The notes under the pieces were generated by a model. That model worked only from the letters and a program-made list of their open reading frames with translations, ran no database searches and was not told the DNA's origin. From Nitrososphaeraceae archaeon (GTDB lineage: Archaea; Thermoproteota; Nitrososphaeria; Nitrososphaerales; Nitrososphaeraceae), in NCBI GenBank assembly GCA_035250975.1, contig DATFEP010000030.1, positions 1 to 21,371 of the forward strand: a stretch of DNA of 21,371 nt. The letters run 5' to 3'. The position numbers and the translations under genes are program-made. Positions 4,245 through 20,965 of the stretch are shown one piece after another. The number at the start of each line of letters is the position of its first letter. The first letter of the stretch is position 1.

Positions 4245-5378
4245 ATGTTAATCATATTATCATGTACATTGGATATGCAAAATAACTATAGACCAATGAT
4301 TTGGTTCATAGCTGGTATATACTTAATGACAAATTTGCCAACAATATTAGAACAAACTTACGCACAGATTACTATAAATGGAGCAGGTGCATCGTTCCCA
4401 TTTCCATTAATAGACACGTGGAGAGTTGAATATCAAAATGTTAAACCTGATGTAAATATCAATTATCAATCTATTGGAAGTGGAGGAGGAGTAAAACAGT
4501 TTATAGAAAAAACGGTGGATTTCGGAGCGACTGATGCTCCGTTAAATGAGGAAGAAGAGAAGAAAATTACTGGTGCAGTACATATTCCTGAGACTATTGG
4601 ATCTGTTGTAGTTGCTATAACTTGCCACAAATATCAGATAAGGAGCTCAAATTAACTGGTCCTGTAATTTCTGAAATATTTATGGGTAAGATAACTAAAC
4701 GGAATGATCCAAAGATCAAAGAGTTCAATCCTGATTTAGATCTACCTGCAGAAGGCATGCATGTGGTACATAGATCTGATGGTTCTGGTACAACATTTGT
4801 ATTTACAGTTTGTATTTACAGATTATTTATCTAATGTTAGCTCACAATGGGAAGCAGAGATAGGCAAAGGAAAATCAGTTCAATGGCCTACAGGAATAGG
4901 TTCTCCAGGAAGCGAAGGTGTTAGTAGTTCAATAGTAAGTACACTTAATTCAATTGGATATATTGAATTAGCTTATGCAATGACTACCGATCTTGATTTT
5001 GCTTCTGTTCAAAATAATGAGGGTAATTTTATAAAACCATCTTTAAATTCTACTGCAGCTGTGATATCATCTTCTACAACGGGCTTACCTGATGGTATTG
5101 GTTCATGGAAAGATGTTTCAGTGGTCAATGCCCACGGTAGTGATTCGTATTCTATAGCAAGCTTCACTTATCTTTTACTCTTTAAAGAATTAGGTACTAA
5201 TCCATCTATTGATGAGACCAAAGCTAAGGCATTAGTTGATTTTATATCCTGGGCTATTACTGATGGACAAAAATTTGCTTCAGGTTTAGAATATGTTACC
5301 TTGCCTGATGAAGTCGTAAAACTTAATCAAGAAATACTCAAATCATTGATATTCAAGGGAAATCCAATACTTCAATAG
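4245..5378 (+). pseudogene. pstS: Phosphate ABC transporter substrate-binding protein, broken by two frameshifts
   Basis: Three ORF pieces carry consecutive PstS motifs (INGAGASFPFP, YQSIGSGGG, DFGATDAPL / VVHRSDGSGTT / GKSVQWP, IGYIELAYA, SFTYLL). 1-bp deletion near 4616 (gttgctataac versus expected VAYN) and a 13-bp tandem duplication at 4796-4821. Confidence 0.92.
4796..4821 (+). repeat. 13-bp perfect tandem duplication (tttgtatttacag x2) inside pstS
   Basis: Read directly at 4796-4808 and 4809-4821; removing one copy restores GTTFVFTDYLS. Confidence 0.92.
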
Positions 5379-5661: not shown

Positions 5662-6744
5662 CTAAATCTTGTAACTTGATGGTCTTTTTTCTATAGTTAT
5701 TACTTCTCCGATAGTTTGATTTAATGCTTCTTCTGCTATGTCACTAGCATGTTCTGCAGTACGTCTTAGATGCTCGAGTATAAGTTTAACGTAAATCTTA
5801 TTTTGATTAAAGGAATCACCAAATTTATCCAGAATTGACACGATTTCATTTTCAAGAAGTCTCACATTTTCAACTCGATCCACTATTTTATCTGCTATCA
5901 AATAATCTCTTCTTAAAAATGCTTCAACTGAATCATTAAGATCTTGTAATGATAGATCGCTCATTTTTTTCACGTTTTCAAGAATTTCATTAGGAATCTT
6001 ATCTTTTATAAACAAACATTGTTCAGTTATTTTAGAAGCATGATCTGCAATTCTCTCGATACTTTTTACAGCTGATCTATAACTTAAACAATCTGAAGTA
6101 TTTTTTAAGCCGATTTCACTTAACATTCTATCGTTTTTTGTAGCAATAACTAGATTTCTCAATATGTAAAGACTAAACCTGTCGACTTCATCATCAGATC
6201 TAATAACAGCATTAGCCAGTTCATAGTTCAACTCTGTTAAAGCAATAATCGCATCTTTATGCATTGAAGTAGCAAGTAGGAACATTCGTCTCACTGCAGT
6301 ATTTACAGAAAGCTCTGGAAGAGTAATTAAAACTTGTATCGTTATTAAATCTGAAGAATCAGCAATAATCTCTGTACCTACCAGATTTCTGCGAACAACT
6401 TCTCTAGCTGCTTCACGTTGTAATGGATTAATTCTTCCCAGTTTCGATTTTAAATTTATTATATTAAATCCTGCTAAATACATGGATACCAATTTACGTT
6501 TTATGGAATTGGAACTATCATCTTTTAGTACTTGAACAGTAGCTTCATCGACTGATTCTTTTGATAATCTAGCAATATCAGATACTATTGATAATGTATT
6601 ATCTGGTTCTCTAATGATTGTAACAGGGTCTCCTGGTTTCAAATGTAGTTCTGTTACCCATTTTTTAGGTAATGATAAGACGTATGTAGATTTCCCAGTA
6701 AATTGTATTTTTCTTACTTCACCACTGTCTGAATATATTGGCAA
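5662..6744 (-). CDS. phoU: Archaeal phosphate uptake regulator, AbrB/SpoVT N-terminal domain plus two PhoU repeats (TTG start)
   Basis: RKIQFTGKSTYVLSLPKKW (AbrB-like), DDEVDRF, KSIERIADHA and EHLRRTAEHASDIAE PhoU motifs; sits between pst relics. Confidence 0.92.
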   Translation of the reverse strand: MPIYSDSGEVRKIQFTGKSTYVLSLPKKWVTELHLKPGDPVTIIREPDNTLSIVSDIARLSKESVDEATVQVLKDDSSNSIKRKLVSMYLAGFNIINLKSKLGRINPLQREAAREVVRRNLVGTEIIADSSDLITIQVLITLPELSVNTAVRRMFLLATSMHKDAIIALTELNYELANAVIRSDDEVDRFSLYILRNLVIATKNDRMLSEIGLKNTSDCLSYRSAVKSIERIADHASKITEQCLFIKDKIPNEILENVKKMSDLSLQDLNDSVEAFLRRDYLIADKIVDRVENVRLLENEIVSILDKFGDSFNQNKIYVKLILEHLRRTAEHASDIAEEALNQTIGEVITIEKRPSSYKI

Positions 6745-11862: not shown

Positions 11863-13781
11863 ATGGTTGAACCATTAGAACGTTCTGTATTTTCTTATAT
11901 GCATAGACAATTTGTTCTATTGAATGAAAATTTATCAGTTGCATCAGCAGTTAAACTAATGCAACAAAAAAAAGTGGAAACAATTATTGTAACTCGCAAT
12001 GAATTTCCTGTAGGAATAGTAACTGATAGCGATATTCTAGAAAAAGTCGTAATCAAAGGAGAAGATTCAGATTTAGTATTACTCAGATCTATAATGACAT
12101 CACCAATAATAACTTTAGCAAGCAATTCTACTGTTAAAGAAGCTATAGAATCTATGCGACTTCATAGAATTAAGAGGATTCCTATAACAGATTCGTCTGA
12201 TGAAACTGGCAAAAAAATAGTAGGAATGATACTACAAAAGACTCTTGCAGATTCTATTAGAAATTCAGTGATAGAAAAAACTTTTAGAAGTTATAGAGTG
12301 ACAATTAGGGAACATTATAAGCCTATCTTTGGAAATGTTGGTTTCATAATGCATTTGCTGGAATATTAATGATTGTTCCTTCTCTATTGGCAACGTTTAT
12401 GAATGAATTACATTCTGCAACAGGGATTTATCTTACTGTAGTAACAACATTTTTTGTAGGTTTTGTGTTAAATGTATTTGGAGAAAAAAGTCCTTTAAAT
12501 TTAAAGCAGGCATCCATTGTTGTTGTCTTAAGTTTTGTGTTATTAAGCTTGTTTGGAAGCCTGCCATATATTTATGTAAATCCTTTTTGGAATAATGTTG
12601 ATTATGTATCACTTTTTGTTAATTCATTCTTGGAGAGTACATCAGGATTTACTACTACAGGTATTTCTACTATAGTTCATCCAGAGGATTTGCCAGCAAG
12701 TTTTGTATTTTATCGTTCATATACTCTGGGTTGGTGGATTAAGTTTTATTTATCTTGTAATGGCATTATATTATCCGGAAACAAAATTGGCCGCAATGAA
12801 AAATATGATTGGAGGTGGTATACTTAAATTTAGACAATTATTATCGACAATTACAATAATCTTCGTAGTTTATGCAGCAATTTTCACTATATTATTGTAT
12901 ACTTTTGGAAGTGAAGATATAATTGATTCTGTGTCTGTAGTATTTGCTACTCTTACAAGCGGAGGATTTGTACCAATTTCAACCTTCTTGGATTCAGAGA
13001 ACACTTTACAATTAATAATAATAATGATTGGAATGATCATATCTGCGTTACCTTTTGCATTTCATTACGGTATTTTTAGTAGAGAATTTAAAACAAAAAA
13101 ACTTTGGAATGAAATCATAATCTATTGTATTTTTATGTCTATATTTATAGTAATATTAATAATTATTGAATCAAGTGTATCTGATGTAGGATGGCTATCT
13201 TTTGTATTTCATGCGATCAATGCTTCTACTACTACTGGCTTTCAATTTTTAAATCTCGTTGAACTATCTGATGGTGGAAAAATATTACTTATTATTTTGA
13301 TGCTCGTTGGAGGAACTGCATTTTCTACTGCAGGTGGTATTAAGATTACAAGATTTCTATATATTTTTAAAAAATTGGCTCAAAAAACGAATTTATTGTC
13401 GCACTCAGATACAGATGGGGAAAATATTTCAGCATCTATTTCATCAACTTCTCGACAATTCAGAAAAGATATTGAAAAATATAATATTAATAAATCAGAT
13501 CAATCTTCAAGACAGAAGTTATCATTATTATCAGATAAAGTCTTTAGAGAAACCTTGATGGTTATATCTTTATTTATAATATTTTCAATTGGAAGTGGAA
13601 TAGCTTTATTGATTCTTTATTTGAATGTGTTTCAACAATCTCAAACACTGGATTATCTGTTGGAATAACTGCCATGGATGTAGATTTGTTCTCGAAAATT
13701 ATTTTGTCATCGAATATGATAATTGGTAGGTTTGAAATTATCGCTATTTTTTATATATTCATTTTCCGGCTTAGAATATGA
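11863..13781 (+). pseudogene. trkH: CBS-pair fused TrkH-family potassium transporter, broken by three frameshifts
   Basis: CBS pair (VGIVTDSDI, RIKRIPI) then pore motifs ESTSGFTTTG, TLTSGGF, ASTTTGF, GGTAFSTAGGIK. Breaks near 12353, 12727 and 13606; the last shifted frame reads FIDSLFECVSTISNTGLSVG...MIIGRFEI...stop 13779-13781. Confidence 0.9.
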
Positions 13782-17817: not shown

Positions 17818-17939
17818 GCCGGGGTACCCAAGCTAGGTAAGTCATAATGACCCTAACAGGGGTCAGCCTCGAGATCGTATGCAATGACGTGCTAGCTGAT
17901 GTCCTTGTGGACTCGTGGGTTCGAGTCCCACTCCCGGCG
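17818..17939 (+). tRNA. tRNA-Ser(CGA) with two introns (17840-17857 at position 21/22; 17874-17893 at 37/38); CCA not encoded
   Basis: Acceptor GCCGGGG/TCCCGGC plus G discriminator; anticodon stem TCAGC/GCTGA with CT-CGA-G|A loop; long variable arm GTCC-TTGT-GGAC; T arm GTGGG-TTCGAGT-CCCAC. Removing both introns gives an 84-nt cloverleaf; both junctions fold into bulge-helix-bulge motifs. Confidence 0.93.
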
Positions 17940-18478
17940 CTCAACTCCAGTAGTCATATTGTAGGTAAAAATTTTAGTATTAGAACTAGAATGGATTAAT
18001 AGAAAAATTAAGAAATAGGTTAAATATTGTAAATTTCATCTAATGATATTCTTAATATCTCCAATTAATATTAGAATGAGTAAAGATCGTCATTAGACGA
18101 TTCACTGTTTGAATAATGAATGTCAAAAAAATGCATAGTCAAGTACTAATATTAATTTATTATTACACAAATGTAATTCATTAAATTTAGCCGATTCATT
18201 GGATTTGGCGATATAATCATATTTCTGTGCATACTTTGTGTTCAATCCCATTTTTGATATATTCTTAAAATTGATATCCAATAGTCGTTAAAATAGATTA
18301 AAATTTTAGGTAAATGTAATATCAGATAAAAGGTTTTACCAAAATGCATGGAATTCTTAATCTGTTTCTTTGATAGATTACCTTATAATCAAATAAATTA
18401 TTAAACTTAATCATACAGTATGAATTATAATGTATTCTAAAATTTAGATATTAGATACTATATAACATTATTCTAACA

Positions 18479-19747
18479 TTATTCTAATCCACTATTTACT
18501 TTAATTATAGTTCTAAAATTATCTTTTGCATATTTTTTTTGGTTAATATAATTTACCAATACGTTTTCATGAATCTTTTGTTGAATTTCAAGTGCCTCTA
18601 ATCCTTGACTTTCAACATTAAATGCCTTTCTGATACTTTTTAATTTATTGTCACTGAATGAATTTGAGTAAATTTGATCGAAATTTATTATAGAATTATC
18701 CATTATAGATGACTTTAAATTTTTTATATCACTTCTATAGTAACCATAATCTTTTCTGTTGAATACACGAAATACTTCTTGCTGATTCATACTTTCGGTG
18801 TTCATCCTTTCGGTGTTTAGGGTTTCTCTATTACTAAACTCTGATGTCATTCTCCATGGAATAAATCTTCCAGTTTTTTTCCTTTGTTGTATTATTTGAA
18901 TGACATTAAGAGGCAATTTCTGAGGGATATGTGAGGTTCCAAAACTATCAATTCCTAATGTAAAAGTAAGAATATCTTTTGCTGGAGTTACATCCGTCTT
19001 ATGTTTTATTCTTGTAAATGGCACATTTAATGCATGGACATAACAATCCTCCTTATACTCCTTTTGTATATCATTAACATAATTGTTCACATCCATTACT
19101 CTAGCAAAAGAATCAATTGGATTATGACCCTCAAAATCCACAATAAATGAGATAATACCTTCATTTTTATAAAAATCAGTCAACTGTATTAACTCATTTC
19201 TGGCGATGAATGGTAAGAATCCCATTATTTCAGCCTTTGAATTAAAGGATTTGAGAATTTCGATGAACTTCTTTAAAAAATTCATATAATCTAAACCTGT
19301 AAGTTGCGGTAAGCGTGGAGGGATAATTGTATCTGCATAAGGATGTGATAGTAGAATACATAAATCTCTAATTTCTGAATCAGTTGGTGGTCTATTGTAG
19401 AAATCTCCTTTTTTCGCATTCTTGTTCTCGTATGAAAAAATTAATAGATTTAATTCCTTTTCCATGTTTGATTTATCAAAAGTGTATCGTAATTTTTTTC
19501 CAAACTCAATTTCTGATTTGGGATCTGAATTTATGTTATCTAACTTCTCCTTTGTAATTGATTTATAGATTTCATTGATTCCTCTAAGTTTATCTTCTTT
19601 AATTAATCTAGATTCAGAGGAAGAATCATTTAGTGTAAATGCTCTTCTTGGCGTAATTATTTCCTTTTCACCAATTTTTAGTTGTAAACTTCTGGCCTTA
19701 GGAAGTGTTTCATCATATCCTCTGATGCGAATGCGAAGATTAGCCAT
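18479..19747 (-). CDS. Uncharacterised protein with a probable tRNA-guanine transglycosylase (TGT)-like TIM barrel, catalytically divergent
   Basis: The 422-aa ORF is clearly coding. N-terminal ARSLQLKIGEKEIITP resembles TGT AR.G.l.....ieTP; VHALNV and LGIDSFG resemble the last barrel strands; C-terminal FNV...LEIQQKIHENVLVNY resembles the TGT HN helix. Fold call is by eye only. Confidence 0.5.
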   Translation of the reverse strand: MANLRIRIRGYDETLPKARSLQLKIGEKEIITPRRAFTLNDSSSESRLIKEDKLRGINEIYKSITKEKLDNINSDPKSEIEFGKKLRYTFDKSNMEKELNLLIFSYENKNAKKGDFYNRPPTDSEIRDLCILLSHPYADTIIPPRLPQLTGLDYMNFLKKFIEILKSFNSKAEIMGFLPFIARNELIQLTDFYKNEGIISFIVDFEGHNPIDSFARVMDVNNYVNDIQKEYKEDCYVHALNVPFTRIKHKTDVTPAKDILTFTLGIDSFGTSHIPQKLPLNVIQIIQQRKKTGRFIPWRMTSEFSNRETLNTERMNTESMNQQEVFRVFNRKDYGYYRSDIKNLKSSIMDNSIINFDQIYSNSFSDNKLKSIRKAFNVESQGLEALEIQQKIHENVLVNYINQKKYAKDNFRTIIKVNSGLE

Positions 19748-19800
19748 ATAATAATTAATAAGCAGTAGATAATAATATTTTAAATTGTGGTATTAAGATA

Positions 19801-20469
19801 ATGAAAAGTGAGAATAAGAAAATAGATTCATTACATTATCCTCCTGAAGAAAAATATTTCCTAGTATTACTATACGCTCCTAATTTATCGAACAAATTTG
19901 CCCAACCAGTCAGAGGTAATCTATGGATGCAAAAGGAAATGTTCGTTCTTTCAAAAATATTAGATGAATTGAATGATTTGAAATTCGATGAACACTTATT
20001 TGGTCCACATAGTCCAATTCTAGAATCTATACAGAATCAGTATCTTAATTCTAAAGTAATTAAACAACAATATCTAAATGGTCCAATTACTCTTACTGAC
20101 AATGGTATAGAATTAGTAAAGAGTATATGGGACAAAATATCTGATGAGAAAAAAAAATTAATTTTAGAAGTTAAACAGTTTTTAAATGATATGAGGACTT
20201 GGGAACTGATTTCATTTATATACTCATCATACCCAGAAACTACTAAAAATTCTGACGTATTAGAAAAATTTCATTCTGAAAGATTGAATTCTGCTATTTC
20301 TTTGTTTAAAAAAAAAAAGATTTCTTTGGAAAAGGCTGCTAGCATTTCTGGTAAAACCTTAGAGGATTTTATTATTTTACTCAAAGAAAAAAAAATTAAA
20401 GCGTTTGAAGTAGATGAGTCAACTCTTAGGGAGGATTTATCATTTTTTGAGAATACTGCTAGATGCTAA
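19801..20469 (+). CDS. Putative antitoxin: N-terminal wHTH (Panacea/DUF4065- or YwgA-like) fused to C-terminal UPF0175 HTH
   Basis: MQKEMFVL...FDEHLFGPHS...ITLTDNG...LISFIYSSYPE in the N-terminal part; AISLFKKKKISLEKAASISGKTLEDFIILLKEKKI...LREDL is the UPF0175 pattern. Confidence 0.75.
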   Translation: MKSENKKIDSLHYPPEEKYFLVLLYAPNLSNKFAQPVRGNLWMQKEMFVLSKILDELNDLKFDEHLFGPHSPILESIQNQYLNSKVIKQQYLNGPITLTDNGIELVKSIWDKISDEKKKLILEVKQFLNDMRTWELISFIYSSYPETTKNSDVLEKFHSERLNSAISLFKKKKISLEKAASISGKTLEDFIILLKEKKIKAFEVDESTLREDLSFFENTARC

Positions 20470-20965
20470 TTTTATAATTAATCTGCAGTATACTAATTGC
20501 GATCAAGTTCTTATTACTCTTGCAAAGAAAAATAGTTGGGATATATATTTACCAAAAATAGCAGAGGCAGAGGCTACACAAAAAAATCCATTGACGAAAT
20601 CTATCTTACAAAACATAAAAAATGGACAAATTATTAGAACTCATGGTAATTCAAATACCATTAATTTATTTCAAAAGTATCATGGAAACTTAGGTAAAGG
20701 AGAACTAGAATCTATGGCTATTGCCTACGATTGTCCAGATAAATCAACAAATCCTTATGTTATTTTATCAGATGACGATAAAGCCAGAAAGAAGGCTAAG
20801 AATTATGGGATTAAATCTCAAGGTATTTTATCAATTTTTATTCTTGCTAATCATCAAGGTTTTCTTGAAAAACAAAAAGCAATTGATTACGTGAAAATTT
20901 TAATCAAAAATAATTTTATTCCCAAACCAAATGCATATTTACTATATCTGAATTCTTTACATTAA
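20447..20965 (+). CDS. PIN-domain (VapC-like, DUF3368-type) putative ribonuclease toxin; start refined from 20414 to TTG 20447
   Basis: MRILLDANFII, EAE, LGKGELESMAIA, ILSDDDKARKKA...GILSI acidic PIN motifs; gggagga at 20429-20435 precedes the TTG; overlaps the upstream gene by 23 nt. Confidence 0.88.
   Translation: MRILLDANFIINLQYTNCDQVLITLAKKNSWDIYLPKIAEAEATQKNPLTKSILQNIKNGQIIRTHGNSNTINLFQKYHGNLGKGELESMAIAYDCPDKSTNPYVILSDDDKARKKAKNYGIKSQGILSIFILANHQGFLEKQKAIDYVKILIKNNFIPKPNAYLLYLNSLH

Follow-up and report, generated by a model that had tools for sequence, protein, structure and literature searches.

A mobile, toxin-antitoxin-like three-gene cassette tied to a transglycosylase-fold barrel in a Nitrososphaeraceae archaeon

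The stretch of DNA considered here (the window) comprises the 21,371 nucleotides (nt) of contig DATFEP010000030.1 from the Nitrososphaeraceae archaeon assembly GCA_035250975.1. Close to its end, beside a tRNA-Ser gene, lie three genes that form a real, conserved and mobile module, which resembles toxin-antitoxin (TA) systems and is tied to a barrel protein of transglycosylase fold. A previous reading of the window, made from the sequence only, had described them as one co-regulated module consisting of a TGT-like protein, divergent from an antitoxin with winged helix-turn-helix (wHTH) and UPF0175 parts, and a PIN toxin. The three proteins are designated TGL, AT and PIN here, and their open reading frames (ORFs) are arranged as follows:

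18479-19747, minus strand: TGL, 422 amino acids (aa)
19748-19800: divergent spacer between TGL and AT, 53 bp
19801-20469, plus strand: AT, 222 aa
20414-20965, plus strand: PIN, 183 aa (or 172 aa from a TTG at 20447)

The coordinates of the ORFs, the 53-bp divergent spacer and the overlap between the AT and PIN frames, which measured 56 nt, were exactly those of the sequence-only reading. Full-length homologues were numerous for all three ORFs, which is why these are regarded as real genes and not as chance reading frames. The spacer is presumed to act as a bidirectional promoter together with an operator; in the 13 divergent homologous loci gathered here, spacers ranged from 14 to 91 bp and were mostly close to 50 bp. 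An imperfect direct repeat of 22 nt (82 % identity) was found at 19746-19767, in the spacer between TGL and AT, and again at 20469-20490, at the AT stop/PIN start. It could be an operator or a chance product of AT-rich DNA.

Recurrence of the cassette, gene order and toxin exchange

A motif-seeded scan retaining one genome per species yielded a forward set of 31 TGL loci. Archaeal hosts were distributed among Nitrososphaerota, Bathyarchaeia, Methanoperedens/ANME-2, Nanoarchaeota/Woesearchaeota and Culexarchaeum/Wolframiiraptor; bacterial hosts were one Terriglobia and one Cloacimonadota metagenome-assembled genome. An AT homologue adjoined TGL in all 28 genome loci that kept the 5' flank of TGL, the remaining ones (L025, L026 and L032) being cut on that side and left out. 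A profile search of 401 genomes from the phylum of the window detected TGL in 18 of them. Every one of the 15 matches with an open frame of at least 343 aa had AT as its neighbour (ten recognised through neighbouring PF03683 matches, five through the AT hidden Markov model (HMM) in the loci) and the other three matches were fragments.

The reverse test started from one AT subfamily (alignment A3) and considered the best 80 of 203 metagenome matches. TGL was found in 52 of these AT-chosen loci and not in 13, and 15 were too short to be assessed, so that TGL adjoined AT in 52 of 65 assessable loci. After dereplication at ~90 %, 51 clusters were left: 37 with TGL, one mixed, four without TGL and nine not assessable. 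Loci devoid of TGL look like decayed forms. Recurrent linkage of TGL to the TA pair, set in advance as the check on the claim that the three genes form one module, was thus encountered in the forward set, the phylum-wide sample and the reverse test alike. In the genome sample, AT-like genes without TGL were seen at L145, L146 and L150, of which L146 combined AT and PIN; PF03683 was present in 89 of the 401 genomes versus 18 for TGL.

Genome loci displayed three gene orders: 13 were divergent, 14 were colinear (AT-PIN-TGL) and one was TGL-AT-PIN. The metagenome loci with TGL were colinear in 40 cases and divergent in 12. Colinear forms often displayed overlaps of 4 nt (for example L083). In the 27 genome loci where the third gene could be assessed (L010 was cut and left out), it encoded PIN in 24 and ParE in three (L006-L008; PF05016, E 2e-7 to 2.5e-11). 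ParE-like toxins were also found with the distant TGL lineages L154 and L155. Two Methanoperedens loci contained a second cassette, composed of a TGL paralogue (TGL2), an AT limited to the N-terminal domain (N-domain), a PF01850 PIN and an ASCH protein, in that order. The homology of this paralogue to TGL was clear from hmmsearch (1e-52) and hhalign (99.8 %). The paralogous cassettes (L013:487-3095 and L020:1481-2962) were located 3 kb upstream of the first ones, with a TGL paralogue of 407 aa and an AT of 163 aa. A two-gene form, with TGL and AT and no small toxin, was not seen among assessable loci. The ParE and PF01850 PIN/ASCH partners, together with the AT reduced to its N-domain, indicate that TGL and the AT N-domain are constant and that the small toxin is interchangeable. 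A reading modelled on restriction-modification (R-M), with TGL modifying and PIN restricting, was considered and given a low rank, as some lineages have ParE in place of PIN.

No fourth conserved gene emerged from the flanks of 18 loci, where the most frequent family occurred four times among 139 ORFs. Some of these flanks contained R-M, MADS-like, AbiE-like or transposase genes and others housekeeping genes. The cassette is not typically viral, since viral contigs contributed one TGL locus (L054, order TGL-AT-PIN). Among metagenome loci, L063-L066 and L069-L072 lacked TGL and had the first ~45 residues of PIN fused to an unrelated ORF of ~300 aa. In L055-L058, AT genes were orphans, with nucleotidyltransferase-like genes and a methylase-like gene of type I behind them (both identified by eye from the ORF starts). 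Both kinds of decayed cassettes sat in closely related populations.

Features of the three proteins and of a predicted TGL-AT complex

Neither Pfam nor NCBIfam nor PADLOC gave a match to TGL at E <= 1, and ten diverse relatives had none in Pfam at the same threshold. A word-index search retrieved 34 relatives, and a profile search enlarged the family to 611 representative clusters at E <= 1e-3, 444 of them at E <= 1e-10. The AlphaFold2 model, obtained from an alignment of 27 sequences (pLDDT 87.7, pTM 0.86), displayed a three-stranded N-terminal sheet (strands 4-11, 19-25 and 28-31) followed by a beta/alpha barrel. Its C-terminal part consisted of a beta-hairpin (327-338) with the motif RxFxxxDYGYY and of a helical tail. 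Against the PDB, Foldseek returned nothing but TGTs among its 50 top matches (QTRT1, bacterial TGT and archaeosine TGT, or ArcTGT; E 1.9e-6 to 4.2e-5, TMq 0.45-0.54), with QTRT1/2 on top. In the ESM Atlas structure search, the TGT cluster reached TM 0.64/0.70 and the DpdA cluster 0.60, and the next different fold scored 0.45. As far as the predicted fold is concerned, the label 'TGT-like' given earlier to the 422-aa protein is correct; it implies neither membership of the TGT family nor base-exchange chemistry.

Residues kept in at least 85 % of 151 relatives were T32, P33, E59, P121, P144, G176, P179, Y193 and D204 in the first half of TGL, and N241, A256, D258, G265, D267, G270, H273, F329, Y334, Y336, N377, E384 and K404 in the rest. 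N241 was conserved in 100 % and E59 in 97 % of these relatives. The polar constellation comprised E59, D204, N241, K257/D258, D267 and H273. The zinc motif CxCxxC...H was not found in TGL, and no cysteine occurred among the conserved columns, the median count being two cysteines per relative; the genome's own ArcTGT carries CSCSIC. Residues 295-321 formed a disordered linker of low confidence. This linker is missing from most relatives outside Nitrososphaerota (alignment A1), and a 15-nt tandem duplication within it (18786-18815) encodes TERMN/TESMN. A fold search of BFVD gave weak, generic TIM-barrel matches (best E 9e-4, to GH5; viral TGTs at ~1e-2), and a PHROGs search with TGL gave nothing useful. 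Long, fused versions of TGL were not encountered, which is weak evidence.

AT is composed of two domains, which correspond to the following parts of its gene:

19831-20250: residues ~11-150, N-domain, a DarG-C/Panacea-like winged helix
20266-20439: residues 156-213, C-domain, a UPF0175 helix-turn-helix (HTH)

Residues 156-213 matched UPF0175 (PF03683) with E 1.5e-12 and 47.5 bits, the cut-off being 27.9. This was the single PF03683 match in the source genome, where AT is present in one copy. The N-domain matched SocA_Panacea (PF13274) with E 0.011 and 17.1 bits, under the gathering score of 25.7; the best AT paralogue reached 25.2 bits (E 3.4e-5). Residues 38-154 matched the DarG model of NCBIfam (E 3.9e-4), and in PADLOC AT matched PDC-S70 and, weakly and in its N-terminal part, PDC-M19A. 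With the AlphaFold2 model of AT (pLDDT 90.4), the two best Foldseek matches were chains D and B of 7yk3 (DarG in the DarTG complex), with E 1e-3 and 2e-3 and TM 0.45-0.53. The match is a modest one and concerns the DarT-binding C-terminal domain of DarG; all further matches were generic winged helices at E >= 0.19. The wHTH plus UPF0175 composition proposed for the 222-aa protein was recovered in this way, with an N-domain that is DarG-like. Seven AT-like paralogues occurred on separate contigs of G510, a genome of the same order (L144, L147, L150, L152, L157), and one of them was seen adjoining TGL. They look like an expansion of the adaptor family.

PIN matched six PDC-S70 models of PADLOC (best 3e-11), a search that had been proposed along with the sequence-only reading, and Pfam PIN_4 at E 0.069. 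The profile of its family matched VapC6 (2lcq) with E 2.3e-4. The protein retains the acidic residues D17, E53, E97, D120 and D121, and the corresponding columns D17, E53, E97 and D120/D121 were conserved in 90-99 % of 80 homologues. Judged by the PDC-S70 models and the VapC6 profile match, the third protein is a predicted PIN. The earlier DUF3368/PIN assignment thus stood for PIN but not for DUF3368: the window protein did not reach Pfam DUF3368 (PF11848), and its homologues did so weakly (E 0.012-0.023). An in-frame TTG at 20447, with GGGAGG 12 nt upstream (20429-20449), would give a PIN of 172 aa, the usual length of homologues, and an overlap of 23 nt with AT. This suggests that the gene starts there rather than at the ATG at 20414.

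Pairwise modelling of TGL with AT, likewise proposed earlier, gave ipSAE values of 0.90, 0.90 and 0.88, versus 0.35 for the best control. At least 50 % of the contacts were common to the runs, and the pLDDT of the partner was at least 79. The contact residues of AT (11-17, 59-61, 72-86 and 105) were all situated in the N-domain (range 11-105), the stretch 72-86 starting right past the invariant G68/S71 motif. Those of TGL were 148-151, 179-187, 206-218, 245 and 409-416. They correspond to loops at the C-terminal ends of barrel strands, namely of the strands on which the conserved residues G176/P179, D204 and N241 are found. In the predicted complex, AT thus covers the catalytic face of the barrel with its N-domain alone. 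The prediction supports binding between TGL and AT without demonstrating it.

Proposed mechanism, rival readings and related systems

The reading considered best here, with a probability of about 0.45, is that of a mobile, self-contained, TA-like cassette inserted beside tRNA-Ser, in which TGL gates a two-headed antitoxin and a swappable toxin is released. AT would combine the roles of adaptor and antitoxin. Its UPF0175 HTH head would neutralise the overlapping PIN, as in ordinary COG2886-PIN pairs, and would probably act as a repressor at the compact promoter region between the divergent genes; the DarG-C/Panacea-like head would dock on the catalytic face of TGL. TGL itself would be the system-defining part, an enzyme or ligand-binding derivative of the nucleobase-transglycosylase fold with a polar set of its own and without the zinc site. 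As long as TGL and AT are bound, the toxin would stay neutralised. Engagement of a nucleic-acid or nucleobase ligand by TGL, or loss of TGL, would shift the balance and release PIN (or ParE), with growth arrest, abortive infection or addiction as the outcome. That TGL is coupled to toxin control is suggested by the constant presence of a swappable classical toxin and by the fusion of both heads in one protein. The sequence-only reading had assigned the sensing of nucleic acid or modified bases to TGL and the effector role to PIN, within a defence or stress module. Such functions, and a defence against viruses, may apply, and the exchange of PIN for ParE fits the idea of a sensor plus an effector.

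A broader version of this proposal is held to be doubtful. TGL would then represent a widespread, mostly archaeal class of 'enzyme-gated' TA immune switches, in which a Panacea-like head of the antitoxin would grip the substrate face of a barrel derived from nucleobase transglycosylases. The barrel would read an infection-specific nucleic acid or modified base (viral DNA of 7-deazaguanine type, free bases) and release the plugged-in PIN or ParE. If true, archaea would have, in this switch, their own independent counterpart to the phage P4 TIM-B systems.

Several observations weigh against gating. TGL was not seen without AT, and AT was seen without TGL (L056-58, L119, L130, L145, L146 and L150); such one-way dependence is what a toxin-antitoxin pair predicts. 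Gating explains the predicted interface over the catalytic face no better than simple inhibition of a second toxin would. In calibration, 58 of 80 solved complexes and two of 110 mismatched pairs attained the ipSAE mark; for a complex modelled, as here, from own unpaired alignments, this calibration holds only roughly. ORF calls and HMMs were home-made, and the locus sets were retrieved by motif and partly stem from related populations. A defence-island setting was encountered in some loci only. As for TGL, sequence comparison linked it to no PDB chain, a profile search of the PDB found no TGT, and a probability of 1 % was the outcome of hhalign with 21 ArcTGTs from the phylum, so that in the model-based comparison the likeness to TGTs is confined to the level of the fold (Foldseek TM ~0.5). 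On visual inspection, one segment of TGL, LGIDSFGTSH, resembles LGCDMFDSAS of the genome's own ArcTGT, and an hhalign alignment without significance pairs GIDSFG with GCDMFD in the same way; with this alignment G270, a glycine in 95 % of relatives, falls at the position of the TGT nucleophile Asp. TGL may for this reason not be a transglycosylase, or not be catalytic. E59, D204, D258 or D267 could replace this Asp.

The one-way dependence of TGL on AT and the occlusion of the catalytic face would fit equally well a module with one antitoxin and two toxins, which we regard as possible though on the unlikely side. TGL itself would be a toxin, excising or exchanging nucleobases on tRNA, rRNA or DNA; the Panacea/DarG-C head would block its active site, and the UPF0175 head would neutralise PIN. 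AT is predicted to touch TGL on its catalytic face only, and structurally it comes closest to the domain by which DarG binds its toxin in the DarT-DarG complex; Panacea-type domains are known to neutralise many unrelated toxins by direct binding (PMC8832971). TGL was always accompanied by AT in the forward set and the phylum-wide sample, orphan AT genes exist, and the colinear form places both enzymes downstream of AT. Polar residues, among them N241 and E59, are as strongly conserved as would be expected of an active enzyme. However, if a pair of TGL and AT N-domain were sufficient, two-gene versions would be expected, and a classical small toxin was present at every assessable locus; 390-420 aa is also large for a type II toxin.

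It seems improbable that TGL and AT form an active modification enzyme, with the wHTH and HTH of AT guiding TGL to DNA or RNA where it would install or remove a base (as a DpdA-like self-mark or in repair) and with the PIN/ParE TA pair as addiction stabiliser. Relatives among TGTs and DpdA do exchange bases of nucleic acids, and some are heteromeric, such as QTRT1/2, the top Foldseek match; AT contains two folds of DNA-binding type, and TA pairs often accompany mobile cassettes. Yet the AT N-domain is predicted over and not beside the catalytic face, the zinc site is missing, glycine takes the place of the nucleophile, and no linked genes for 7-deazaguanine synthesis or restriction were found in the flanks of 18 loci. 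The presence of TGL-binding and toxin-neutralising heads in one polypeptide moreover argues for coupling and not for hitch-hiking. Quite improbable is a constitutive negative regulation similar to the TIM-B model (bioRxiv 10.64898/2026.10.19.760177), by which a product of TGL or a covalent modification would keep toxin or antitoxin off until infection depletes the substrate or product. The analogy is suggested by the fold class, which TIM-B shares and likewise couples to variable effectors. Against it, TGL is no member of PF14350, and PIN with an AT-like or plain UPF0175 partner is widespread without TGL (see the PF03683 and TGL counts above, and L146); since such pairs exist, PIN does not generally depend on TGL for its off state. 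That an ordinary UPF0175-PIN pair simply lies by chance beside an unrelated gene is extremely improbable. Stand-alone pairs of this kind are common (PMC2701414, PMC5499597), but the linkage counts contradict this reading: adjacency recurs whether one starts from TGL or from AT, with three gene orders and hosts from several archaeal phyla, and the additional AT domain is predicted to bind TGL.

The closest described analogue of the cassette appears to be the TIM-B systems. In the preprint of October 2026 (bioRxiv 10.64898/2026.10.19.760177), the P4 beta family (PF14350) was unified with the deazaguanine transglycosylase barrel, combined with varied effectors and proposed to repress them. PanA-type antitoxin domains are treated there as regulators in neighbouring contexts. 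TIM-B proteins are described as TIM barrels structurally related to TGT and DpdA; a hairpin and helices form their C-terminal part, and they belong to TA-like or immune operons with interchangeable effectors including an RNase of RelE/HigB type (10.64898/2026.10.19.760177). Similarly, the cassette presents a TGT-like barrel in an operon with a PIN (DUF3368-like), a ParE/RelE, or a PF01850 PIN and an ASCH protein. Unlike TIM-B, TGL forms a separate sequence family. None of 11 TGL members matched PF14350, a PF14350 search of three TGL-bearing genomes gave no match, and hhalign of TGL gave 0.2 % versus P4 beta and 0.06 % versus a small beta alignment (which included one off-frame ORF). The cassette also differs by its obligatory Panacea-like-UPF0175 adaptor with PIN or ParE and by its mostly archaeal distribution. 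UPF0175 and Panacea are not mentioned in the TIM-B section of the preprint's main text (10.64898/2026.10.19.760177).

Pairs of UPF0175 and PIN (COG2886-COG2405/DUF3368) are long-predicted type II TA systems (PMC2701414, PMC5499597) and mainly archaeal (PMC2701414, PMC5499597, PMC12988326). The cassette resembles them by the UPF0175 C-domain of AT, the PIN of PDC-S70 type and the overlapping order of antitoxin, then toxin. Ordinary UPF0175 proteins have open frames of ~75-135 aa, whereas AT adds an N-domain of ~150 aa and TGL is obligatory. The three-component COG2405 systems described in the text of PMC5499597 include an HTH and a DUF955 protease instead of a TGT-fold barrel. With Panacea and DarG-C, the cassette shares the principle of a partner enzyme neutralised by direct binding, to the extent that the predicted interface between the AT N-domain and TGL holds. 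It differs in that the AT N-domain remains below the PF13274 gathering cut-off and is fused to a second antitoxin domain, and in that its partner is a TGT-fold barrel, which is not named in the article text of PMC8832971 (Dataset S1 being outside the search).

From TGTs and DpdA (PF01702, PF23859), which are used in defence in Dpd and as the CBASS-associated TGT cited in the TIM-B preprint (10.64898/2026.10.19.760177), TGL retains the barrel, the three-stranded N-terminal sheet, the TP motif at the first barrel strand and the C-terminal hairpin with helices. It differs in the lack of profile-level similarity, of the zinc site and of linked deazapurine synthesis genes, and in the glycine at the aligned nucleophile position. 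Toxin-antitoxin-chaperone (TAC) modules are classical TA pairs in which an extra segment of the antitoxin binds a third protein that controls the antitoxin. AT resembles such antitoxins by its extra segment for a third protein; the latter is of TGT fold here and not a SecB-like chaperone, and the segment is a folded N-terminal domain and not a C-terminal tail. TAC modules are mentioned in PMC8832971.

The sequence-only reading had also regarded the combination as unnamed. No annotation tool used here names the TGL/AT/PIN trio, and no description was found in the full-text literature (supplements and subscription journals being outside its coverage); the claim nevertheless has to be qualified by the close class of TIM-B systems in the October 2026 preprint. 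Archaeal immunity is poorly charted. According to a survey of 2026 (PMC12988326), almost one archaeal genome in three lacks known systems beyond CRISPR and R-M, and PDC-S70 figures in it as a single-gene, unvalidated, mainly archaeal defence candidate. A sizeable share of the PIN genes of PDC-S70 type is part of a larger unit centred on a TGT-fold family without a name, which comprises the 611 clusters and occurs in the 18 of 401 genomes. TGL can be added as a new family to Pfam, PADLOC and DefenseFinder, and the two-headed antitoxin, with a predicted interface resolved to residues, provides a testable architecture. The cassette would add a second and independent example of toxin control by a recruited barrel of transglycosylase fold, and it bears on the route by which enzymes of this fold may have turned into regulators or sensors in conflict systems.

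Insertion site and other features of the window

Two features upstream of the cassette define the site at which it is located:

17818-17939, plus strand: tRNA-Ser(CGA), class II, with two putative introns, read from the sequence and after in-silico removal of the inserts
17940-18478: ORF-free AT-rich spacer between tRNA and cassette, the start of a strain-specific segment

The distance from the tRNA 3' end to the TGL stop was 540 bp, and the GC content of 18001-18500 was 0.222 versus ~0.29 for the window, in agreement with the ORF-poor, AT-rich DNA noted earlier at about 540 bp from tRNA-Ser. The acceptor stem of the tRNA gene has 7 bp, its T-arm reads GTGGG/CCCAC and its variable arm is long; inserts lie in the D-arm (~17835-17858) and in the anticodon loop (~17874-17893). 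ARAGORN, with its intron option on or off, gave no tRNA at the unedited 17818-17939, and Rfam gave none there at the gathering threshold or at E <= 10. Once the inserts were excised in silico, ARAGORN called a tRNA in 3256 of 5760 boundary combinations. The commonest call was tRNA-Ser(cga), with 759, and it was stable when the anticodon-loop insert was set at ~17874-17893. The tRNA-Ser is thus real despite the silence of both programs, and routine annotation would overlook archaeal tRNAs that, like this one, have several introns.

None of 40 relatives, 24 of them congeners, yielded the cassette, and this fits an accessory gene set or a recent arrival, as had been proposed. Two congeners, G046 and G049, displayed ~95.8 % identity to the window, ending at 17941 and 17981, at the tRNA 3' end, and contained no counterpart of the window DNA beyond it. 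In G046, a gene encoding 550 aa (L167:2809-4461, minus strand) overlapped the 3' end of the same tRNA-Ser. ESM Atlas features place its product among tyrosine integrases with scores of 0.97-0.99, and phmmer against the PDB gave no match for it. Because synteny stops at the tRNA 3' end and because G046 carries this tyrosine-integrase-like gene there, the tRNA-Ser is considered an integration hotspot in the genus, with the cassette lying within a strain-specific segment. This supports the tRNA-Ser as a variable integration site, in line with the mention, in the sequence-only reading, of tRNA genes as common sites of island integration.

The contig ends 406 bp past PIN, which places the far boundary of the element, and any integrase of its own, out of view. 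A look-up of sequencing runs listed no RNA run containing the locus, and the probable source metagenome was the only one to contain it completely. In the 3.4 kb up to the contig end, no att-like direct repeat of the tRNA end was detected, and the repeats that were present look like AT-rich chance. The 3' 25-45 nt of the tRNA (window 17911-17960) recurred with 84-100 % identity at many places in congeneric genomes. These scattered matches may be other tRNAs with a similar T-arm or leftover att fragments.

The earlier claim that many other accessory genes of the window had decayed was retained in part: two candidates were recovered, but most remaining ORFs look like intact housekeeping genes. 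TrkH appeared to be split into overlapping frames at 12369-12827 and 12703-13668 (Pfam positions 26-100 and 147-412 of 502). An ORF of 136 aa at 4245-4655 spanned only positions 10-98 of a PstS-like periplasmic binding protein model of 267 positions. Both are likely pseudogenes or assembly frameshifts. At 5662-6744, on the minus strand, a protein of 360 aa joined PhoU domains to an N-terminal domain of MazE/AbrB type; this is probably a usual phosphate regulator of archaea with no relation to the cassette.

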